Shown here: positions 19,550 through 64,000 of the stretch, piece by piece
Position numbering within the stretch: position 1 is the first letter of the stretch
How the letters are laid out: each line of letters begins with the position of its first letter
Assembly (NCBI GenBank): GCA_048571215.1
Contig: CP182352.1
Location: forward strand, 1,920,001-1,984,000
Source: Halarcobacter sp.
Lineage (GTDB): Bacteria; Campylobacterota; Campylobacteria; Campylobacterales; Arcobacteraceae
DNA length: 64,000 bases
Direction of reading: 5' to 3'
The notes under the pieces: generated by a model
Databases searched by the model: none
What the model was told of the DNA's origin: nothing
The model's input: the letters and a program-made list of their open reading frames with translations, nothing else
Made by a program: the position numbers and the translations under genes

Positions 19550-19618
19550 ACATAACGTTTGAGTTGAGAAATATTTGAGCCGCAGGGTCAAATATTTCTT
19601 TCCAATGATTTGTTATAT
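19550..19618 (-). other. attC site
   Basis: ATATAAC...GAAATATTTGACC-CTGC-GGCTCAAATATTTC...GTTATGT on the minus strand. Confidence 0.9.
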
Positions 19619-20100
19619 ATTTTTGATTGCATTATAACAATACTTCTTGATAGGAAGATACCACTTAGTGAACCATATAAAAAACTAATAGCAATAATAA
19701 ACCCTAACTCATGTATAATAGATAATTCCCTTGCAAGTGCAACTCCAACAAAATATTTAATAAAGAATATAACTAGTATAAGAACCATAGGCATCCAACT
19801 ACCTGGAATATAAAAAACATCTTCAGATTCATTATATTTAATATTTTTAGGAAACGACAATTTTAATCCTATAAGTAAAAATATAAATCCGCCAATAAAC
19901 CATAGTCCTACTGGTGTTATCATTGTTCCAAAAGCAGAAAAAACACCAAATAATGATAGTAGGATCATAGCAATAGGTAAAGTAAATATTCTTTTTAATT
20001 TTACTTCTCTATCTTTTGTTTGTGTATATCCTAAAAAAACCAAACCTATAAACAATATAAAAACCCATATGGGTGTATGCTGAATTATTTCAAGAATCAA
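19588..20100 (-). CDS. Cassette-encoded membrane protein (DUF6622-like)
   Basis: HTPIWVF and PGSW motifs, multiple TM segments; reads into its own attC. Confidence 0.7.
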   Translation of the reverse strand: MILEIIQHTPIWVFILFIGLVFLGYTQTKDREVKLKRIFTLPIAMILLSLFGVFSAFGTMITPVGLWFIGGFIFLLIGLKLSFPKNIKYNESEDVFYIPGSWMPMVLILVIFFIKYFVGVALARELSIIHELGFIIAISFLYGSLSGIFLSRSIVIMQSKIYNKSLERNI

Positions 20101-20115
20101 TCTTATTCCTTTTAT

Positions 20116-20148
20116 ATATAACTATTTATTAAACACACATTATATATA
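20116..20148 (-). promoter_or_regulatory. attI-like site with -10 box (copy 2)
   Basis: Minus strand TATATATAATGT-N6-AATAAATA-GTTATAT. Confidence 0.65.
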
Positions 20149-20433
20149 TAATAACCTAAAAATCAATAAATATCATACAATATAAATGTCGTATATTAAA
20201 ATAAATACAAAGCCTTTAAATAAAGTGTTCATCAGTATTTTACTCTAAAAAATACTGCAATACATAATATTTTTTAAATATATTTTAACTTTCTAATATA
20301 GTTTTTATGTACGTTTTATATCGATATTTAGATGATAATAGTACATTTTGTATGTATATTAAGATAATATCGTAATAACATACATTATGTTATATTTATT
20401 AAGAAGTCAATTATTAATCCAATTTATAACTAA

Positions 20434-48298: not shown

Positions 48299-51200
48299 AT
48301 GAAAAGATTAATATATATCTTATTTTTGCTATCTTGTTTCTTTATTAGTAATATAATTGCTGATGAAGAAACAGAAGCCTCACTAGCACAAATCAAAGCC
48401 CAAATAGATGAACTTGAAATTGCAAAAGTTAACTTACAAAAAATAATTAAAGTCAATGAACCAGAAATAGATAAAACCTCTAATATGATAATCCAACTAC
48501 TTAAGGTTGAAAAAGAGCTAGATTCAGCAATAAAAAAGAATATATATAAAACATTAATTGCTGGTAATATCAATGTTATATTAGAGATTCAAGGTTCATC
48601 AAATGCAGGTAAAATACTTGACTTGGGTACTTGGGTAGTTGGGAAAGTTGCAGGAGTAAGTATGGAAAAAAGTGGATTATTTAGTAGCCCTGCTTACTAT
48701 ACAAAAAAAATGACCCAACTAAATGAGCAAAATATCAGATTAACTGTAGAATTAAAAGAGTTATATGAAGCAAGTAAAAAATCTGATGATGAGATTCAAA
48801 AACATTATGATACCCATAAAAAGAATGATTTTTTTTATGATAGTGGCTTAGGTACTCTAGGAACTATACAATACAGAATGAAATTAGTTTTAAGTAAAGT
48901 TTCTCCTACTATTATGTCTCTAAAACAATTACGAACAAATCATAGACAAGTTGTAAATCAAGCAAAAAATGAGTTAGAATTGACACGTGAAGGTATCGCT
49001 CTTTTAAGAGATAGGTATCAAGAACTAAATAATGCTAAAGATAAAAAAGAGGATAAAAATAAACTTGAAGAAAAACTTGCAAAAATTGATGATGTAAAAA
49101 GAGAAATAAAACTCTCATCTTCTGATATTACAGTTAATGTACCTGACAAATGTAAATATTATGAAGATAAGGCAAATAGTTTACTAAATAATTATATTAG
49201 TCTATCAAAAAGATATGAAACTGTTTATGAAATTTATAATGAAAAAATGAATAAATTCTATGCAGAAAAAGAAGAAAAATTAAATAGTATAAACAAAGAA
49301 TTTGAGAAAAAAACAAAAGAGATATTTAAAAAATATCCAAATACTGCATATTATACTCCTCAAACAATGAGTTTTGAATATAATAGAGAATTACCTTTTG
49401 CAAAATTATTATCAAATACAAGATACTCACATAATGAATATACATCAGCCAAAAAATCATATATAAGCTCTATTAAAGAGTTATCACATAATATCTTAAA
49501 TGGTATTCCTGGAGAGTCTGAAGAAAAAATATTAAGTCAATTAATAGCAGATATAAATGCTACAGTCTCAGGATATTCTTCATTAATTAATAGCAAACAG
49601 TGTAGTTCAACAAAATCCGTAGAAAGAGAAATAGTTACCTATGAACCAATATATGAAGTAGTTGATGGTATTAATATCATAGTAGGTGAAAAAAAAGTTC
49701 TAAAAATAATCTATGTAGATGTTCAATATTTTAAATCAACAAACTATAGAACCTATGATAATCTATATCCATATTCTCAACTCAAAGAGCATTTAGTAAT
49801 CTCAAAATTAAAAGTATTGAAAAAGAATTTACTTTCAGATATAGAAAGAAAGACAACTCAAGTTAAAAATGAAGAGAAATCATTTGCAGACCAATACATT
49901 AAAATTAGAATCCATTTCAGAAAGATAGAAAATGAAATAAAAATAGCACTTAATCAATATATAGAAAATGAAAATGAAATAATCCCTTTTAATAGACAAT
50001 ATATACAAAAACTTAAAAAACTTTTAGATTATTATAAAAATAAAAACATATTTGATAGAAAAAGTGATGGAACACATAAAGAGTATCTCATTGTCAAAGA
50101 TGATTGGTTACTTCCAAAAGATATAGATGAAAAAAATTCTTGTGAAAAAATACAAAACATAAAAAATAAAATTCTTTCACCACAAATTCAAAATATTGTT
50201 TTATTAGAAAAAGAAATAGATTCCCTACAAAATTCTAGATTACCAAGGCTTTATATACCTACTTATGGATATGTACACTTCCCAGGACTCGCTGCAACAG
50301 CAGAAAATTTAAAAAAAACAAGTGATAAATTGTGGGGAAAACGTACTGATTTAAATTTGATAAGATTAGATAATTATTCTAATTTATCATCTTTATTTAA
50401 CAAAATTTCTAATAATAAATTCTATCAATTATCAATATTAAATGGTGGCATATTTATAGAAATCCATGATAATCAAGTAAAAGCAGCACGTGAAATAATA
50501 AATGTACTAAAAAATACAATAATAATTGTAAAAGGTGATATTAATCAAAAAAGAATCCACAGGGATACCTATAAAGAGAATAAATCTATTTATGACACTC
50601 AATTAAAAAAATTCAAAAATGAACTCTCATGTTTAGGAAAGGATGAATCATATAATAAACAAATTAGACCTTTATTTGAAGAACTAAAAAACCTTCTTCC
50701 AAAACTAAAATCAAAATCTGTATTTATAAATGCAAATAAATATATAAATCAATTAGAAAATTTTAAAAAAGAAGTTGAGAATTTTGGAATAAGTGATTCA
50801 TCAAATCATGAAAAAAAATATAAAGTATTATTAGCTAAGTATAATAATTATGATAAAGAGATAAACTCAAAAAAAGAGTTATTTTTCTCTTTAGACTTTG
50901 AAAAACTATATAAACTTTTAAATGAAATATATCCTCTTTTTGAAGCCCATAGAATACATATAGAGGAGAAAAATAAAAGTGGAAATGAAGATGCCAATCA
51001 AGAACTTATAAAAGATTTGTATAAAAACTTTACAAATTTTTATTCCAATAAAAACCTTCCATCTTTAATGAATCTATTATCAGACCAATGGGAAAGTAGT
51101 AGTGATGGAACTACACTAATGGATTTAGAAGAGACATTAGATAACAGTTTTTCAGTTTTTGATGAAATAAATTGTTCAATTGAAAATTTAGATATATTTA

Positions 51201-51373
51201 AACTATCAGCAAATAAATATCAAATTAGTTATGTAATTACTATAAAAGGCTATATCTATGACAATGATATAAAACATCTAGAAAAATCCTCAGTTAAAGA
51301 AGAAGTGTTAATAGAAAACTCAAAAGCTAAAATATCAAAAACTTTAAATGGTAATTTTTGGCCCAATAATTAA
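48299..51373 (+). CDS. Large secreted coiled-coil protein with C-terminal NTF2-like domain
   Basis: Signal peptide, long helical K/E-rich body, C-terminal IKDLYKNFTNFYSNKNLPSLMNLLSDQW. Confidence 0.6.
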   Translation: MKRLIYILFLLSCFFISNIIADEETEASLAQIKAQIDELEIAKVNLQKIIKVNEPEIDKTSNMIIQLLKVEKELDSAIKKNIYKTLIAGNINVILEIQGSSNAGKILDLGTWVVGKVAGVSMEKSGLFSSPAYYTKKMTQLNEQNIRLTVELKELYEASKKSDDEIQKHYDTHKKNDFFYDSGLGTLGTIQYRMKLVLSKVSPTIMSLKQLRTNHRQVVNQAKNELELTREGIALLRDRYQELNNAKDKKEDKNKLEEKLAKIDDVKREIKLSSSDITVNVPDKCKYYEDKANSLLNNYISLSKRYETVYEIYNEKMNKFYAEKEEKLNSINKEFEKKTKEIFKKYPNTAYYTPQTMSFEYNRELPFAKLLSNTRYSHNEYTSAKKSYISSIKELSHNILNGIPGESEEKILSQLIADINATVSGYSSLINSKQCSSTKSVEREIVTYEPIYEVVDGINIIVGEKKVLKIIYVDVQYFKSTNYRTYDNLYPYSQLKEHLVISKLKVLKKNLLSDIERKTTQVKNEEKSFADQYIKIRIHFRKIENEIKIALNQYIENENEIIPFNRQYIQKLKKLLDYYKNKNIFDRKSDGTHKEYLIVKDDWLLPKDIDEKNSCEKIQNIKNKILSPQIQNIVLLEKEIDSLQNSRLPRLYIPTYGYVHFPGLAATAENLKKTSDKLWGKRTDLNLIRLDNYSNLSSLFNKISNNKFYQLSILNGGIFIEIHDNQVKAAREIINVLKNTIIIVKGDINQKRIHRDTYKENKSIYDTQLKKFKNELSCLGKDESYNKQIRPLFEELKNLLPKLKSKSVFINANKYINQLENFKKEVENFGISDSSNHEKKYKVLLAKYNNYDKEINSKKELFFSLDFEKLYKLLNEIYPLFEAHRIHIEEKNKSGNEDANQELIKDLYKNFTNFYSNKNLPSLMNLLSDQWESSSDGTTLMDLEETLDNSFSVFDEINCSIENLDIFKLSANKYQISYVITIKGYIYDNDIKHLEKSSVKEEVLIENSKAKISKTLNGNFWPNN

Positions 51374-55998: not shown

Positions 55999-56021
55999 AT
56001 AGGTTTATTTTAAACCTATCT
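55997..56021. terminator. Terminator-like hairpin at the distal end of array 2
   Basis: AGATAGGTTT-ATTTT-AAACCTATCT. Confidence 0.6.
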
Positions 56022-56373
56022 TATGAGATTTTTCAAGTTTATTTATAAATATATTTTCATCTTTTTCAATATATTTAAAACTTCCATTTATTTTGTTTGT
56101 ATCTAAGTTATGTGTTTCTATGATTTGATATGCCGAGTCAGGGAGTATTTCTGGAATCCAATCTCTTTAAGGATTTAAATATTCTGTTTCAGAAGCATAT
56201 TTTATTGCTTTTTTTTTCTCCTTTTAAGACAGCTTCATCAAGGTTACGAGCTTTTATGGTAATGATGCGTTCTTCAATTAAATCAATATTTTCTGATAAT
56301 ATTTATCGGTTTTTTTTTGTTTACCCAAAGTTGTTGTTATATATAGTGTTTTAATTGCAAATACTTTTTTTAT
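56005..56373 (-). pseudogene. Decayed cassette gene(s): DUF4288-like fragment joined to a second gene remnant
   Basis: AAGGAG RBS followed by ATA instead of ATG; frameshift; EERIITIKARNLDEAVLKGEKKA..YLNP* then WIPEILPDSAYQIIETHNLDTN... Confidence 0.55.
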
Positions 56374-56391
56374 ATTAACTCCTTTGGATGA

Positions 56392-56523
56392 TGATAACGC
56401 CAAGCTAAGTGGCGACTGATACGGAGTGACATTTGTGAAAAAATGGCGAAGCCATTCGCAAATGCAGTGGAGTATCAAGCGTCCGAGTGAGCATAAGCGA
56501 ACGACTTGAGCACATTGTTATGC
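56392..56523 (-). other. Long (132-bp) attC site of a different, GC-richer type
   Basis: GCATAAC-AATGT-GCTCAAGT...ACTTAGC-TTGGC-GTTATCA with internal hairpins. Confidence 0.88.
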
Positions 56524-56976
56524 GTTGCACGATTCTAGCCTCGTAGTGATTTCTTCACCCAACCCGATCATTCGATTGTGGTGATTCTCGCACAGCAGCC
56601 AAGCCCGAGACTTGGGGACAAGGTAATACTCAAACCCATAGCACTCGCCAATAACCTTTTGAATTGCAACTGGCGTGGCTTCATAGATTGGATAGAAAGG
56701 CATTTGAACATCTTCAACCACAAACCAGACCACTTCGACCGGATCGGGTACCAACTCCGTGATTCTTTCGAAACCTTTTCCATCCATGAACTCTCTCGAC
56801 GCACTTGGTATTGCGAAAGCCTCCCACCACCAGCGCCTATCACCACCTACGACAAAGTGTGCAACAAGTTCTTTGTAAAGCCGTTCGCCCTCGATGCTTG
56901 GAACCTGCGAAAATTCTCTCTGGGGAATGGATAGTGAACGCAAGGCGTTGGCAATTTCTTCAGTGACGATATCCAT
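56518..56976 (-). CDS. Cassette-encoded hypothetical protein (DUF6756-like), foreign GC-rich DNA
   Basis: True start MDIVTEE with AAGGA RBS; WWWE and FEYYLV..WLLCENHH motifs. Confidence 0.7.
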   Translation of the reverse strand: MDIVTEEIANALRSLSIPQREFSQVPSIEGERLYKELVAHFVVGGDRRWWWEAFAIPSASREFMDGKGFERITELVPDPVEVVWFVVEDVQMPFYPIYEATPVAIQKVIGECYGFEYYLVPKSRAWLLCENHHNRMIGLGEEITTRLESCNA

Positions 56977-56991
56977 ACTCTTCCTTTTTAC

Positions 56992-57060
56992 GCATAACGT
57001 TTGAGTTGAGAAATATTTGAGCCGCAGGGTCAAATATTTCTCTCCAATGTTTTGTTATAA
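56992..57060 (-). other. attC site
   Basis: TTATAAC...GTTATGC; almost identical to the attC at 19550-19618. Confidence 0.9.
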
Positions 57061-57282
57061 CTTTTTTTCAATTTCAGTTTTCAAATCACTTTCAATACAT
57101 TCTTCAAAATATTCTAATCCAAACTTTATAATAGCACTAATTGGAATTTTAAAATCTAAAGTCATCTTTTTAGCACCATTATCATCTAATAGTTTCCCAT
57201 GAAAAGTTTTACTTGCCAAATCAATATTCCATTCGCCATTAATTTCATACTTTTTATTTTTAACTTCTATATTTTTTTTCAA
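57055..57282 (-). CDS. Cassette-encoded 75-aa hypothetical protein
   Basis: TAAGGA RBS, TTG start, stop codon inside R''. Confidence 0.65.
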   Translation of the reverse strand: MKKNIEVKNKKYEINGEWNIDLASKTFHGKLLDDNGAKKMTLDFKIPISAIIKFGLEYFEECIESDLKTEIEKKL

Positions 57283-57297
57283 TTCGTATCCTTATGG

Positions 57298-57366
57298 TTA
57301 TAACGTTTAAAATGAGCTAATAAATTAGCCGTAGGGTAATTTATTGGCTCCACTGATTTGTTAGAC
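57298..57366 (-). other. attC site
   Basis: GTCTAAC...GAGCCAATAAATTA/TAATTTATTAGCTC...GTTATAA; same family as 15849-15917. Confidence 0.9.
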
Positions 57367-58608
57367 ATTGAGTTTTTCAAAATCAAAATCCTCATTAAAA
57401 TACTCTTTATAAGCTATTATATGGGTTTGGGGAATTCCAAATGTGTATTCAAATATATTGATAATCTCATCAGGCTCAGGATTAACAATTACTACTTTAG
57501 GAAGTTCCATTTTCTTACAAAAAGCCTCTCTAAATAATTGAATAGTTCTTGTATCAGTTCTTGGAAAAGAATATCCTATGATAATGATTTCATTAGCATT
57601 GATAATTTCATCTTTTGCAGTTTCCCATAGCTCTATAAAGAGATTTGCAAATAAGGTATATTTTTTATCCTTAACAGGTGGGATAATTAAAGGCATAGTA
57701 ATTACACCTTGTTCTAGTCCTGTACGCTGTGGAATATTAAGCTCAGCTCCAAGTAGTTCTTCGTATATTTTTTGTGCTTCTGGTTGATTTGTTACTCCAG
57801 CTTTAAACATCACTTTATTTTTATTTTCTTCTAAAGCTATATCATCAAGAATATTTGGTGGGTAATAAAAATATGAAAATGGCTCGTATGGGCCTTTGAA
57901 TCTTCCGTCATAACAGTGATAGGGACTATATGTATGCTCGTAAATATAAAAAGATGAGTTATCAATTTTTTGATTTAATTTAAGTAGCTGTTCTCTGTCT
58001 GGCTGAGGGTATGTAGTAAGCCAATTTGTTGAGCCATGAAGCTTTATTAACTTAGTATATTTATGTGTACAATCTTCTACATCAGTCCATTGGTCTTTAT
58101 ATATTTTCTCAGGTTTCAAACAATAACCAAAATCAGTTTTCCAATTTGTGTTTTCAGACAATGCCCGATCTATCAACGTATCCCAGTTAAAAGTAATAAT
58201 GCTGTCATCTTTTCTAAGAGACTTGACTAATTTAACATGTGCATTGGAAGTAGGTCCATTTTGTATTTCATTAATGATTGACGTATATAAAAAGATAAGT
58301 TGTAAATATGCCTTGTAGTAGTAGATGTTATTCCATATTGAATTTTCTTTCATTTGTTCTAAAAGCTTTTTTTCTACATGAGTATGAAAATCTTCGATGT
58401 CAAATGAGGAAGTGAAAAAGTCATTAATATCTATATCGAAATCCTGTTTACCAATGTTGATTATATCTCCAATTAGTACCCATAAATCATCACTGATATC
58501 CAAATTTTGAAACGTATTAAAAAAATCATTTGCTATAGGCATTGTGCAATTTGTAGGTGATGAAGAATAGGCTTTTGAAGCTCCTGCTCCAATAATAAAT
58601 GTTCTCAT
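57361..58608 (-). CDS. SIR2-like (NADase-type) domain protein, first cassette of array 2
   Basis: IIGAGAS, IITFNWDTL, IKLHGS and IIGYSFP motifs. Confidence 0.85.
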   Translation of the reverse strand: MRTFIIGAGASKAYSSSPTNCTMPIANDFFNTFQNLDISDDLWVLIGDIINIGKQDFDIDINDFFTSSFDIEDFHTHVEKKLLEQMKENSIWNNIYYYKAYLQLIFLYTSIINEIQNGPTSNAHVKLVKSLRKDDSIITFNWDTLIDRALSENTNWKTDFGYCLKPEKIYKDQWTDVEDCTHKYTKLIKLHGSTNWLTTYPQPDREQLLKLNQKIDNSSFYIYEHTYSPYHCYDGRFKGPYEPFSYFYYPPNILDDIALEENKNKVMFKAGVTNQPEAQKIYEELLGAELNIPQRTGLEQGVITMPLIIPPVKDKKYTLFANLFIELWETAKDEIINANEIIIIGYSFPRTDTRTIQLFREAFCKKMELPKVVIVNPEPDEIINIFEYTFGIPQTHIIAYKEYFNEDFDFEKLNV

Positions 58609-58628
58609 ATGCAGTCCATCTTTCAGTT

Positions 58629-58661
58629 GTCTAACTAATTATTAGTAATACATTATATATA
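58629..58661 (-). promoter_or_regulatory. attI-like site with -10 box (copy 3)
   Basis: Minus strand TATATATAATGT-N6-AATAATTA-GTTAGAC. Confidence 0.65.
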
Positions 58662-58925
58662 AATAATATATAAAAACATCTAATATCTTAACATTAAAAA
58701 TGTAAAGATATTAACTCAATTAAGCCTTAAATAGTCTAAATTTAATGAAATACAAAATAATATAAGAAAAAGTAGAATATTTTTTATGTTAAATTATCAA
58801 GGTATATCCTTAATATCTTATCATTTTGTATGACTATTGGGTGAAAATCTTGATAGTTTAACAAAATGATAAATATATTATATTGTGTTATTGTGAAACT
58901 ATTATCAATATATTTAGGTGTAAAT

Positions 58926-60680
58926 AAACTTTTGCTGTACCTCTTGGCTTTCTCGACTTTCTTTTCTGAAAAAGAAAGTAGCAAAGAAAACATCCCACAG
59001 GTTTCGAAGGTGAAACTTCCCTCGCTTATTATTCATCCCTTTTGAGTGCCTAAAAACTTGCTAAAATGTGCTCCCAGCACATTTCTTTACGCTTCAAACA
59101 GTTTAGTCACTTGTTTTCAAAAGAGATAAATAAACACTCGGCTTCTCAAATGCGGGAAGCTGGGATAAGGACCTTTGCATTTTTTGTTACCATTTTATTT
59201 AAGCTGGTGTGATACTCAAATAGTATGAGAAAGTTCAAAGCTAGTGTATTTAGTCCAGACTTTGTTGAAGCCGGAAGTTTTCTAATTATTTTCGGAAAAG
59301 ACTGAGGACCGTTCAACTGGATAAAAGGTACTGAATGTACCTTTTAGGAAGGCGTTTCGCAGGTCAGAAGATAATTAGAAAGCTGTAGGGAACTTTAGCT
59401 TCAACAACCGTCTAGTTGCTTTTTGTCTTACTTTTTACAACTAAAAAGTGAGAAAGCGGAGAGCTTTGCTCTACAAGACAATTGCAGACAATAAAAACTA
59501 TTTTCAAAATATTTGAGTAAAGTTAAACTTTTACTGTACGTCTTAACTTATTCCGACTTTCTTTTGTAAAAAAGAAAGTAGCAAAGAAATTATCCCACAG
59601 GTTTCGAAGGCGGAAGCTCCCCTCGCTTATTATTCATCCCTTTTGAGTGCCTAAAAACTTGCTAAAATGTGCTCCCAGCACATTTCTTTACGCTTCAGAC
59701 AGTTTAGTCACTTGTTTTCAAAAGAGATAAATAAACGCTCGGCTTCTCAAATGCGGGAAGGTGGAATAATGACCTTTTCATTTTTTGGTACCATTTTGTT
59801 TGGATTTGTGTAATACTCAAATAGTATGAGAAAGTTCAAGGCTAGGGTATTTTAGTCCAGACTTTGTTGAAGCCGGAAGGTTTTTAATTATTTTCGGAAA
59901 AGCCTGAGAATGTTTGAGGAGAGAAAAGTGACTAGATGTCACTTTTTCGACGAGTTTCGCAAGGCAGAAAATAATTAAGAACCTGTAGGGAACTTTAGCT
60001 TCGACAACGCGTCTGGTGGCTTTTATTTTACTTTTACCACTAAAAGTAAAGAAAGCGAAGAACTTGTTCTTCAAGAGGGTGCATACAATAAAAACTATTT
60101 TCAAAATATTTGAGTGTAGTTAAATTTCTACTGTACGTCTTAACTTATTCCGACTTTCTTTTGTAAAAAAGAAAGTAGCAAAGAAATTATCCCACAGGTT
60201 TCGAAGGTGAAACTACCCTCGCTTATTATTTATTGTTTCTGTTTTGTAAAACTCACATAAAAATATGCTCCCAGCATATTTGTTCTGTTCAAACAGTTAC
60301 AAAACTTCTCCGAAACAATAAATAAACACTCGGCTTCTCAAATGCGGAAAGGTAGGAAATTGACCTTTTGCATTTTTAGTACCATTTTATTTGGATTGGT
60401 GTAATACTCAATATATATTTTGAAAGTTCAAAGCTAAGCTATTTTAGTCCAGACTTTGTTAAAGCCGAGTGCTTTGCTTTTTAAAGCGGAAAAAGTCGAG
60501 AATGTTTGACGAGAGAAAAGTGACTAACTCACTTTTTCGAGGAGTTTCGCAGACTAGCTTTAAAAAGTAAAGTGGGAGGGAACTTTAGCTTCAACAACGC
60601 GTCTGGTTGCTTTTTTGCTTCTTTTTTACAACTAAAAAAGATGAAAGCGAAGAACTTGTTCTTCAAGACAAATACAACAT
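58926..60680. repeat. Three tandem ~600-bp non-coding structured repeat units, each with two convergent ~200-nt elements
   Basis: Units start at about 58926, 59525 and 60122; shared blocks such as AAAGAAAGTAGCAAAGAAA, CCCACAGGTTTCGAAGG, TAGTCCAGACTTTGTT and GGGAACTTTAGCTTC recur three times. Confidence 0.93.
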
Positions 60681-60741
60681 TGATAAAAAACTAAGCTACA
60701 ACACACTAGAATTCCAAAAATTTAAAACAAAGTTACTTTTT

Positions 60742-61893
60742 ATGAGAAAACAATTATTGCCACTTGCTTTAGGTGGTCTTGCTATTGGTACTACAGAATT
60801 TGCTATTATGGGATTATTGCCAGATGTTGCAAATGATTTAGATATTAGTATTCCTGTTGCGGGTCATTTAATCTCTACTTATGCTTTAGGAGTGGTTATT
60901 GGAGCACCTATTTTAGTAGCTTTAAGTGCAAAATTTCCTGCTAAAAATATCTTAATAGTTTTTATGGTGTTATTTACATTTTTCAACTTTTTATCTGCTA
61001 TTGCACCAAATTATTCTACACTTTTGATATCTAGGTTTTTAAGTGGTTTACCCCATGGTGCTTTTTTTGGTGTGGGTACTGTTGTTGCTGCAAAACTTGC
61101 CCAAAAAGGTAAATCAGCACAAGCAATTGCTGTGATGTTTACGGGGCTTACTATTGCAAATGTTGCCATGGTTCCCCTTACTACATACCTAGGTCATACT
61201 TTTAGTTGGAGAATTGCATTTGCTATAGTTTCACTTATTGGCTTAGTAACAGTTTTCTTTTTATATAAAAATCTTCCAAAACAAAAAGAGGTGAAAACTA
61301 TAACACTAAAAGATGAATTCCAATTTTTAAAGACAATTAAGGCTTGGCATATCTTAGCTATAGTAGCAACAGGTTTTGGTGGCTTGTTTGCTTGGATTAG
61401 TTATATCGCTCCACTACTTATTCATGTTACAAATTTTGAAGAGGGTAGTGTCTCTTATTTGATGATAGTTGCAGGTCTTGGAATGTTGGTTGGAAATATA
61501 GTTGGTGGATATTTAGCAGATAAAAGAAACCCTATAAAAGTAGCAATTTTTCTTTTATCTATGATGTTTATATGTTTAGTATTAGTATTTTTACTATCTG
61601 AATATAAGTTTGCAACTATAATTCTTACCTTTTTATGTGGAGCCTTTGGTATGTCTATTGGAGCACCTATCAATATTATCATGTTAGATAGTGCAAAACA
61701 CTCTGCCCTACTTGGAGCGGCATTTTTACAAGCTGCTTTTAATGTAGCAAACTCTTTAGGTGCATTTTTAGGAGGTATCCCTTTATTTTTAGGATTAAAT
61801 TACAACTACCCTGCACTAAGTGGCGCGTTTATGGCTTTATTAGGGGTTGGACTATGTTTATATTTTTTAAAAAGATATAAGGTTGAGAAATAA
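60742..61893 (+). CDS. MFS transporter, DHA1/AraJ-like
   Basis: LAIGTTEFAIMGLLP and GLPHGAFFG motifs; start at MRKQ. Confidence 0.9.
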   Translation: MRKQLLPLALGGLAIGTTEFAIMGLLPDVANDLDISIPVAGHLISTYALGVVIGAPILVALSAKFPAKNILIVFMVLFTFFNFLSAIAPNYSTLLISRFLSGLPHGAFFGVGTVVAAKLAQKGKSAQAIAVMFTGLTIANVAMVPLTTYLGHTFSWRIAFAIVSLIGLVTVFFLYKNLPKQKEVKTITLKDEFQFLKTIKAWHILAIVATGFGGLFAWISYIAPLLIHVTNFEEGSVSYLMIVAGLGMLVGNIVGGYLADKRNPIKVAIFLLSMMFICLVLVFLLSEYKFATIILTFLCGAFGMSIGAPINIIMLDSAKHSALLGAAFLQAAFNVANSLGAFLGGIPLFLGLNYNYPALSGAFMALLGVGLCLYFLKRYKVEK

Positions 61894-61942
61894 TTTCAAA
61901 TATCAATACTTCTATAGATAATGAGACTTAAAAGTTGAAATT

Positions 61943-62830
61943 TTAAAAAGATCTTAAAAACTTAGGTCTTAACATGCTACTATCATCTATTGCCATATCT
62001 AATACCTCAAGCAAATTAGCTTTATCTTTTGGTAAAGTCCCTTTTAGAGGCAATGCATTTGAAGCATGATTTGATCTAAAGATTATTGGATTTTTAGGAT
62101 TGATTAGGTTTATAAACTTTTTTTGTTCATCAAGCATATCCTTATCACTACAAAAAATAAACTCTTGATTTTTCTTTTCAAATCTTTTAAAAAAATCATC
62201 CTCTTTTGTATCACTTAGTCCTAATTGTAAGGTTGATAAATAGTTTATATGTTCACACTTGTTTATTAATTTTGCTGTGTCTTCTATATGTTGTTGTGAA
62301 AGTTTTTTTCCCCCAAGACCTAGTATAACTGTAGCTGAAATCTTTATATTTGCTTTTGCTGCTTTGTCTAATCCCTCTTTCATTTTATCTGGATTCATTG
62401 GTTTATTTATATATTTTAATAACTCTTGATTTCCTGATTCTATCCCATAATAAACCAAACTTAAGCCATTTTCTCTTAATAACTCAAGTTCTTCCAAAGA
62501 TTTTTCAAGAAGATTATAAGGGCTTGCATATGAGGATACCCTTTGTAGTTTTGGAAATGTTTTTTTTAGATATTGTAAAACCTCTAATAAAAACTCAGTT
62601 TTACAAGCAAATGCATCTCCATCTGCTAAAAAAACTCTTCTTATATCTTGATAATAAGATATTTCATCTATCTCATCTTTTATCTCTTCTATATCTTTGA
62701 TTTTAAATTTTTTTGTTTCATACATAGAACAAAAGCTACATTTATTGTAGCTACACCCCAATGTCACTTGCAATATAAGTGAATTTGCTTCTGCTGGTGG
62801 TCTATATACTGGTTCGTGATACTCAATCAT
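61943..62830 (-). CDS. Radical SAM protein
   Basis: CSYNKCSFC motif, RPPAEA, FRSNHASN. Confidence 0.9.
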   Translation of the reverse strand: MIEYHEPVYRPPAEANSLILQVTLGCSYNKCSFCSMYETKKFKIKDIEEIKDEIDEISYYQDIRRVFLADGDAFACKTEFLLEVLQYLKKTFPKLQRVSSYASPYNLLEKSLEELELLRENGLSLVYYGIESGNQELLKYINKPMNPDKMKEGLDKAAKANIKISATVILGLGGKKLSQQHIEDTAKLINKCEHINYLSTLQLGLSDTKEDDFFKRFEKKNQEFIFCSDKDMLDEQKKFINLINPKNPIIFRSNHASNALPLKGTLPKDKANLLEVLDMAIDDSSMLRPKFLRSF

Positions 62831-63251
62831 CTTTAAAAGTCTCTTCTTCCTCTTTTTTACCAAACATATATCTTTGTGAAGTTTTAACAGCAAGATACCT
62901 TACAAACAATAAAAAGATAATAACCCCAGATAATACTAAAATATTAAAGTTTAGACTACTATGCATCAAAGAATCCAGGGTATCTATATTTTCTGCATTT
63001 ATCTTAACTACATTGACTATTAATTCTCTCAATGCTAAAATTATAAAAGCATCAACAAGTATTGCTAAAACAACCCTTTGTTCTCTTATAAAATTAACCA
63101 CTGCTCTTACTATCTCTAAAAAGATAATAAAATACAACATATAGATTATAAACTCCATCAACATATTTAAAGATAAAGCTACTAGAAATAAAACAGAGGC
63201 TATGGATAGTTCTATATAAAATTTATCTTTTATAAACTTAATATTATCCAT
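62823..63251 (-). CDS. PsiE-family membrane protein
   Basis: IFLEIVR..LVDAFIILALRELIV pattern, 4 TM segments. Confidence 0.7.
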   Translation of the reverse strand: MDNIKFIKDKFYIELSIASVLFLVALSLNMLMEFIIYMLYFIIFLEIVRAVVNFIREQRVVLAILVDAFIILALRELIVNVVKINAENIDTLDSLMHSSLNFNILVLSGVIIFLLFVRYLAVKTSQRYMFGKKEEEETFKDD

Positions 63252-63262
63252 AATATATCCTT

Positions 63263-64000
63263 TTAGATTACTGCTTTTATATTTAACCAAGAGCTTGGAA
63301 TTTGACTTAAAGTTTTATCCTCTTGTGCCATAAATATCATAGTAGCAACCATTCCTCTTGCACTACTATCTCCACCAGCTTTTGCATTGTTTATTAACAT
63401 CTCTTTTAGATTATCGTATTTTGCTAAAAGATGCATAACTCCTTCAAAACCACCATTTATATCACAAGCTGGTCCAAAGTCTCTTATAGCTACAAAACTA
63501 TCTTTATCGTTAGATGAAGAACCATCTACTATATATGATTGAATTTTCATATCAAAATCTTCTCTTAAAAAACTTATTGCCTCTTGAATCGTTTTTCCAC
63601 CTAAGACTTCAAGTAAAAGTTTGGCAAAAAACTTACCACTTGTAGTTGCTTCATATGAGTTATGACTCGCTTTTATAAATACCTCAACATTATTCAAAAA
63701 CTCATCTTTATCTTTTGATACCAAAAGTAATGGAGCAATTCTTCCAACAATAGATAAATCAGTAGAATTAGAACCCGTAGGAGAAATACCTTTTTCTATA
63801 TTTTCTAAAGTATTTTTTGAGGCAGAGTCAATATATCCACCATAAATCTCCATTTTTGTTTTCCAAAAATCTATATACTCTTGTAGATCAAAACTCTCTT
63901 TATCTTTTATAAACTGATAAAGCCAAAGGGTTTGATCTCCATAATGGGTAAACTCACCTGCAACTTTTCCTTTATGCCAAATAGCTTGAGGAGCATTTAA
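63263..64000 (-). CDS. ADP-ribosylglycohydrolase-family protein (partial; starts beyond window end)
   Basis: Frame open to the window end with GEFTHYGDQ; C-terminal NAKAGGDSSARG. Confidence 0.85.
   Translation of the reverse strand, partial: LNAPQAIWHKGKVAGEFTHYGDQTLWLYQFIKDKESFDLQEYIDFWKTKMEIYGGYIDSASKNTLENIEKGISPTGSNSTDLSIVGRIAPLLLVSKDKDEFLNNVEVFIKASHNSYEATTSGKFFAKLLLEVLGGKTIQEAISFLREDFDMKIQSYIVDGSSSNDKDSFVAIRDFGPACDINGGFEGVMHLLAKYDNLKEMLINNAKAGGDSSARGMVATMIFMAQEDKTLSQIPSSWLNIKAVI

Follow-up and report, generated by a model that had tools for sequence, protein, structure and literature searches.

A tandem array of inverted doublets of one non-coding motif, with a predicted triple-helix pseudoknot end, beside an integrase-less integron platform

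The array at positions 58926..60680 of the window (the whole 64,000-nt stretch of Halarcobacter sp. DNA analysed here, in whose numbering positions are given unless marked as genome positions) is built from one ~220-nt non-coding motif, two inverted copies of which form a doublet that is repeated three times head to tail. The three ~600-bp repeat units claimed in an earlier reading of the letters (the original prediction) are there, with 87% mean column identity in an alignment of the three units; the A hairpins start at 58956, 59556 and 60153, giving periods of 600 and 597 (599/597 by the repeat finder), and the G+C content of the array is 35.6% vs 28.5% for the genome. An A and a B element had been placed in each unit, and both are present in all three, but they are not two distinct elements: A aligns with the reverse complement of B as one family (mean identity 0.695 between subtypes and ~0.83 within each), which rules out separate families and means that every ~600-bp unit is an inverted doublet, with three such doublets in a row. 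The quoted stems can all be found in the sequence, although the perfect AAAAGTGAC/GTCACTTTT hairpin lies in unit 2, and unit 3 has a shorter variant. The claimed absence of a credible ORF also holds, since the ORF list gives only two short frames overlapping the array (69 and 95 aa) and indels in the stems shift the frame between copies, so that both are read as chance ORFs and a coding-repeat reading is ruled out by the ORF list and the unit alignment together. A type I toxin-antitoxin check found no evident conserved reading frame in the motif alignments, with ORFs listed systematically from 60 aa upward. The features of the array and its right flank are as follows.

58956..59157, minus strand: motif copy A1 (116.7 bits with the model; alignments, folding); the predicted minus-strand fold is a rod with a three-way junction, then a pseudoknot/triple-helix end at 58956-58994, with a predicted knot hairpin at 58956-58979 and mirror third strand at 58983-58989
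59253..59472, plus strand: motif copy B1, an inverted, diverged homolog of A (157.1 bits with the model); knot hairpin 59429-59449, small terminal hairpin 59459-59472
59556..59758, minus strand: motif copy A2 (106.7 bits with the model)
59855..60072, plus strand: motif copy B2 (178.4 bits with the model, whose training set includes B2)
60153..60349, minus strand: motif copy A3 (139.7 bits with the model); inner stems differ from those of A1 and A2
60447..60664, plus strand: motif copy B3 (159.0 bits with the model, whose training set includes B3)
60742..61893, plus strand: MFS transporter gene, right flank, outside the element (ORF list, Pfam)

The original prediction had missed the inverted A/B family, its 17 clusters in this genome, the predicted pseudoknot with base triples, the adjacency to attI and the occurrence in several phyla. 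With a confidence that stops a little short of even, we read the doublet as a REPIN-like non-autonomous mobile element whose ends would act as folded single-stranded DNA of an unprecedented fold.

That selection maintains a multi-stem single-strand fold, as had been predicted, is supported by modelled folding energies and by covariation. B2 folds with z = -6.35 (RNA parameters) and -6.69 (DNA parameters) and A1 with z = -3.41 (RNA), and for each copy none of 200 shuffles was as good. The proposed covariation check was made on 33 dereplicated homologs, drawn from 93 anchored cores of this genome and its relatives after long and near-identical ones were removed: 41 of the 49 pairs vary on both sides (shuffled mean 29.4; 0 of 500 shuffles reach 41) and 82% of cells pair in the 49-pair structure vs 38-57% with slid partners, values which, since the structure was drawn from the same alignment and the shuffles ignore kinship, are strong indications and not probabilities. 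For A it is the minus strand that folds, for B the plus strand. The rod has its three-way junction at a near-invariant AGGGAA/CCGA and a conserved UGUUUGA loop, and the conserved internal loops of the folded strand read as tandem G-A pairs in the motif alignment.

The end of the motif is predicted to be an H-type pseudoknot with a pyrimidine loop in the major groove (U.A-U and C.G-C triples; T.A-T in DNA). The loop of the outer hairpin is complementary to a segment adjoining the rod, the longest complementary loop-to-linker run averaging 4.38 in distant copies vs 3.22 when shuffled (max 3.53) and 3.35 in Arcobacteraceae vs 2.78 (max 3.04), and between this loop and its complementary segment sits a mirror copy of the hairpin's purine strand. 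Counted over distinct parsed motifs (58 from 86 distant and 57 from 99 Arcobacteraceae sequences), the full mirror is present in 55/58 distant motifs (shuffled mean 18.6, max 28) and 55/57 Arcobacteraceae motifs (shuffled mean 30.6, max 42), and the position of its first G agrees in 51/58 (shuffled 17.1) and 35/57 (shuffled 18.8), respectively; the pattern used to find the distant set required three A at the start of the third strand but left the G position and the run length free. Since a mirror is unable to form Watson-Crick pairs with an asymmetric stem, the mirror points to base triples, and several A copies in this genome alter all three triple positions together. Even RNAs seldom show base-triple covariation of such clarity.

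Pyrimidine-motif triples and H-type pseudoknots are best known from RNA, and the telomerase RNA pseudoknot has the same topology as the predicted knot, with a pyrimidine loop in the major groove of a purine-rich stem; the likeness is a structural analogy only, as we found no template, reverse transcriptase or transcript here. Among DNA repeats, the nearest in design are BoxC, PIT and TM, dispersed intrastrand triplex repeats made of a hairpin and a mirror-repeat third strand (Holder et al. 2015, PMC4666352). Like the present motif they have no function assigned in the portions of that paper drawn on here, in which BoxC/PIT are linked to unstable loci, but their motif is G/C-rich and the word "pseudoknot" is absent from the paper, in contrast to the A/T-rich, knotted motif with a 170-nt rod and a doublet arrangement found here. 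Membership in BoxC/PIT was rejected because it needs a G/C-rich motif, whereas the present third strand consists mainly of A, with one or two G.

Each half might instead be the gene of a large structured RNA, in two divergently transcribed subtypes, whose 3' triple-helix pseudoknot, comparable to telomerase RNA or ENE elements, would stabilise the RNA or serve as a core for catalysis or protein binding, and whose copies would spread via RNA or by hitch-hiking; we place this on the unlikely side. It would fit the folded strand being lower in energy with RNA parameters in 93/99 Arcobacteraceae and 51/53 distant copies (74/99 and 50/53 with DNA parameters), the excess of G-U over A-C (359 to 96 and 103 to 35, in an alignment fitted to the model), the invariant junction residues and the tandem G-A pairs, and a pyrimidine third strand on the folded strand is of the type able to form in RNA according to the consulted part of PMC4666352. 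RNA-library contigs overlap parts of relatives' elements, but they are unstranded, come from other organisms and may be DNA; 14 runs had shares of 0.05-0.10, and the four of them inspected all gave unstranded contigs of other organisms. A promoter-like motif conserved in the doublet spacer across genera was not found, two spacers are only ~35 nt long, and divergent promoters in the spacer were rejected for want of conservation, all of which count against an RNA gene, as does the lack of a reverse transcriptase (no RVT_1 match) in this genome; the same result, together with no Rfam intron match, led us to reject a group II intron or retroelement.

The hairpin loops bear on the same choice. The C-GNA-G mini-hairpin is a signature of DNA hairpins; in 53 GC-rich homologs it makes up 77 of 284 triloops on the folded strand vs 5 on the other strand, and GNRA plus cUNCGg loops account for 4 of 192 folded-strand tetraloops, an excess and a near-absence that favour DNA over RNA. 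The loop signal in Arcobacteraceae is weak and partly reversed (C-GNA-G in 14 of 415 folded-strand triloops; 36 GNRA on the other strand), and the GNA loop of the junction hairpin lies on the non-folded strand. These sequence features put DNA somewhat ahead of RNA as the acting molecule, though not decisively. The original prediction had offered a non-coding RNA and a non-autonomous mobile element, and both stay live options, the "large ncRNA" part of it now lacking a conserved spacer promoter. Should the acting molecule prove to be DNA, this would be a conserved, naturally occurring tertiary fold of DNA that greatly exceeds REP, attC and BoxC in complexity.

A model search for further copies gives 78 matches in 17 clusters in this genome (54 matches cover at least 170 model columns). 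These copies are ~83% alike on average, and so show no sign of very recent movement. By blastn the element is present in 19 of 36 other Arcobacteraceae genomes and in 0 of 24 genomes from other families, and the covariance model finds it in 2 of 151 genomes of the phylum, both Arcobacteraceae. An exact pattern for the knot end, used on GTDB genomes, matches in at least 123 stretches, including Burkholderiales, Pseudomonas, Parabacteroides and Desulfobacterota by their record titles; 53 of 86 such matches extend into the full motif, and a model built from Arcobacteraceae only yields, in 82 distant loci, 42 matches with E no higher than 0.001. Relatives thus occur across Arcobacteraceae, Beta- and Gammaproteobacteria, Bacteroidota and Desulfobacterota, with patchy presence. 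One Parabacteroides genome has 21 pattern matches listed. Two-subtype doublets with knots outward are found in this genome, Azonexus, Parabacteroides, Pseudomonas and others; by a strict pattern, 27 of the 77 distant loci that could be assessed have a partner and many look solo, a count to be read knowing that the pattern misses some partners that the covariance model sees. Neighbours in the 82 distant loci are mostly unrelated housekeeping genes. In another class the exact pattern occurs in 9 of 301 genomes vs 2 for the reversed control, and for at least one of the nine a chance match seems likely. A query from the window had no match in a plasmid collection, and a betaproteobacterial query matched five plasmid records and no phage in the plasmid and phage collections; viral contigs gave 4 and 2 pattern matches, of which 3 resemble the knot end by eye, and on the first four the covariance model gave two chance-level matches only.

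That the original prediction could match the array to no known family holds for Rfam, where a search of window 56000-64000 with Rfam 15 gave six matches with E 1.7-4.6, all under the gathering score. No description of this fold was found in the literature, mostly the subscription-free part of it, and the supplement of PMC11109978 may list the motif; the repeat family is apparently undescribed, and it is widespread yet has no Rfam model. Could it be a known repeat under another name, such as Pseudomonas R200 or a Breaker-lab mobile/repeat candidate, that ordinary RAYT or IS enzymes move, its link to integrons having arisen by local chance and been multiplied through homologous recombination? 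The sequence of R200 may resemble this motif, and Pseudomonas loci do carry the motif. REP-like hairpins often flank distant copies. R200 is a 320-bp intergenic repeat of Pseudomonas fluorescens with tens of copies (Silby et al. 2009, PMC2718517), which puts it in a similar size class and copy range; Narunsky et al. list 250 mobile/repeat candidates in the consulted part of PMC11109978. We consider this quite improbable, given the Rfam and literature results and Y1 transposases that do not track with the element, and even if the motif were R200, the available part of PMC2718517 gives no structure or function for it.

Left of A1, the stretch 56392-58885 reads as an integron platform, with an attI core and co-oriented cassettes that have complementary boxes; it has no adjacent intI, and A1 occupies intI's place. 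Its features are the following.

58629..58885, minus strand: integron platform without integrase, with attI core GTTAGAC at 58629-58635 and a region like that upstream of intI (blastn, profile)
57361..58608, minus strand: cassette 1, a 415-aa SIR2-like protein (weak Pfam SIR2_2 and PADLOC SIR2 matches)
57298..57366, minus strand: attC 1, with a GTCTAAC box complementary to the attI core
57055..57282, minus strand: cassette 2, a 75-aa protein (no Pfam match)
56992..57060, minus strand: attC 2, with close copies elsewhere in the genome
56518..56976, minus strand: cassette 3, a DUF6756 protein (Pfam)
56392..56523, minus strand: probable attC 3, GCATAAC ... GTTATCA by eye (no match to the attC profile)

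The region left of A1 is homologous to DNA upstream of the genome's single intI (a blastn chain of 71%, 68% and 87%), which is intact and lies at genome 895242-896201 (398 bits). The pairs GTTAGAC/GTCTAAC, GTTATAA/TTATAAC and GTTATGC/GCATAAC bound the three co-oriented cassettes, and the complementarity of the attC 1 box to the attI core is as expected after integrase-mediated capture. The SIR2-like protein of cassette 1, judged by its sequence, is possibly anti-phage; the start of its cassette (window 58500-58635) is ~97% identical to wastewater RNA-library contigs, which suggests that the cassette is common to other bacteria. An attI platform profile built from 12 regions finds 19 platforms in the genome, one belonging to intI and 18 without intI, and 16 of these 18 are closely followed by an A copy (one interrupted by IS110); the native integron and two other platforms are without the element. 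Four platforms retain the intI ribosome site and first codons directly before the element, and adjacency of attI and element is also seen in loci from 7 other genomes, which had been chosen for holding the element. Cassettes at the other platforms include TIR-Mrr, Mrr, HNH and kinase genes with PADLOC matches, several of the 16 element-capped platforms have defence-like first cassettes, and one methyltransferase cassette is present in two arrays of this genome with 95% identity.

The locus shares with integrase-less integrons (CALINs) an attI with three cassettes and complementary core boxes, here to the left of the array and in a genome with a single intact intI; it differs from them in that intI-less attI platforms recur at 18 places, of which the motif caps 16. 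No attC boxes are present in the motif itself: an assignment to integron attC was rejected because RYYYAAC ... GTTRRRY boxes are unconserved in the motif alignment and the local attC profile has no match on motif copies. With the element in intI's place, the 16 capped platforms offer a testable route for the origin of integrase-less cassette clusters. A second cassette array, around window 19552-20401 (genome 1935852-1940401), has an attI platform without the element and five attC matches at genome 1935852-1939617. A different, ~105-nt palindromic repeat lies downstream of intI (genome 895070-895175), and related sequence occurs at four other places.

The adjacency of A to 16 of the 18 orphan attI sites could also mean that the host retains the doublet as a single-strand scaffold for platforms of gene capture (fork stalling, ssDNA holding or replication priming), beside the sites on which single-strand recombinases act: IntI in this genome and, possibly, a transposase of REP type in Gallionellaceae-like ones. 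At least 10 distant doublets enclose 0.7-1.6 kb of mostly low-GC, unrelated cargo, and Gallionellaceae-like doublets enclose single low-GC genes (KilA-N, RelA/SpoT-domain, LprI, 8xMP and unknowns); the cargo begins at a common junction in 4 of 9 loci examined and often ends in a REP-like hairpin, which would also suit a scaffold, as would the reported in vitro block of polymerase by BoxC/PIT triplex repeats and their occurrence at unstable loci (PMC4666352). We nevertheless regard a scaffold as improbable, because most distant copies lie between housekeeping genes without a cassette, the native integron and two further platforms do without the element, and intI and the element are not co-distributed. 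The Gallionellaceae-like cargo doublets (loci L118, L123, L157, L168, L324, L340, L343 and L383, with no attC seen) are possibly a separate REP-based gene-capture system. Mobile insertion cassettes and transporter IS likewise have two ends bracketing variable passenger genes, but no terminal inverted repeats of a known IS and no cognate transposase were found here.

Signs of mobility, which the preferred reading of the doublet as a non-autonomous mobile element calls for, come from the distant doublets that bracket cargo and from sites just after rplT, carA and one other gene, which are occupied by the element in several species but not in others. At the same sites after the rplT and carA stop regions, subtypes or orientations differ between species, as for repeated insertion or exchange, and the same-site copy is never the closest one in this genome (ranks 2-21 for the 7 copies compared). 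Insertion solely after terminators, in the style of group IIC introns, fits three Arcobacteraceae sites and was rejected as not general. The element ends are ragged on the outside and no target duplication was seen there by eye, although a short one could be missed with no closely related empty site to compare, and a MITE of a DDE transposase was rejected on the same inspection, which showed neither matching terminal inverted repeats nor a duplication. Two IS110 families have inserted in the elements, one at a fixed position in A (327 aa; genome 1467773, 1705108, 2521627 and 2826742) and the other at a fixed position in B (323 aa; genome 383537, 424877 and 969584). In relatives G006, G012 and G016, B is split at the same point as by IS110, by 1.2-1.4 kb.

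Candidate enzymes were tried in turn against the distribution of the element. A Y1/RAYT mobiliser was rejected because no such gene was found in 7 of 15 relatives that bear the element, and 3 genomes where the element was not found have one, and this genome's single Y1 gene has no element match nearby; IntI was rejected because intI was not found in 10 of the 15. A tyrosine recombinase beside one partial copy was rejected as well, being present in genomes where no element was found and absent from the element-bearing G009 and G027. Scans of 209 ORFs beside distant copies (ORF subsets, partly at E 1e-15) found no transposase or reverse transcriptase, no TnpB zinc-finger domain was found in this genome, and no TnpB/IscB was seen beside distant copies. 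The distant neighbourhoods had no gene family in common beyond shadow ORFs of the element and housekeeping genes.

The doublets share with REPINs/REP-BIMEs and their RAYT the inverted arrangement, the many intergenic chromosomal copies, the tandem arrays, the rarity on plasmids and phages and the invasion by IS110-family elements. REPIN halves, however, are 20-40-nt palindromes, and the halves here measure ~220 nt, contain a three-way junction and are predicted to form a pseudoknot with a triple helix; unlike those of a REPIN they are subtypes ~70% alike, and no RAYT tracks with the element. Membership in REPIN/RAYT was therefore rejected, the palindrome size and a cognate, co-distributed Y1 being the points of disagreement and the dispersed extragenic copies (78 in 17 clusters) the point of agreement.

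From the observed doublet anatomy, covariation of stems, mirror and loop-to-linker contacts, dispersed copies, patchy spread and attI link, we infer the molecule, an enzyme, the movement and an order of events at intI as follows. With the halves on opposite strands and the knots facing out, the lagging-strand template would expose one folded copy whichever way the doublet is oriented (the GC-skew extremes of the genome are too lopsided for a reading of replichore bias). The fold would be recognised by an enzyme acting in trans, which would cut close to the knot and paste in the doublet, at times along with a cargo gene enclosed by the halves. For this genus, we suppose that a doublet came to sit at the beginning of an intI gene and that the module of doublet, promoter region and attI was then copied to many loci, where each attI platform could catch cassettes with the help of the single IntI still present, acting in trans. 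The tandem arrays and the mosaics of stem modules would result from recombination among copies. A broader extrapolation, which we hold to be unlikely, is that these are pan-bacterial self-folding nucleic-acid machines, DNA or RNA, whose rod and triple-helix pseudoknot would drive their own copying or gene capture with host enzymes alone, and which in Arcobacteraceae would have taken over integron attachment sites and scattered integrase-less platforms.

Several smaller features accompany the elements. Two kinds of 20-23-nt hairpin insert occur at different points in many elements, each beside an A run (e.g. genome 958066, 971114, 1711671, 963605 and 2523277), and one kind is found twice outside elements (717695 and 724671); they are possibly footprints of another mini-element. 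At L011:2049-2260 a B half is joined at the apical hairpin to an inverted A half, beside a tyrosine recombinase and an ORF6N gene, which suggests recombination at the hairpin tip. A separate ~30-nt motif follows solo A copies and also occurs alone (genome 548517, 2204759 and 3396737), and some copies of it have short direct repeats. Elsewhere in the window, a 1024-aa ORF at 48299-51373 has an apparent signal peptide and no Pfam match.
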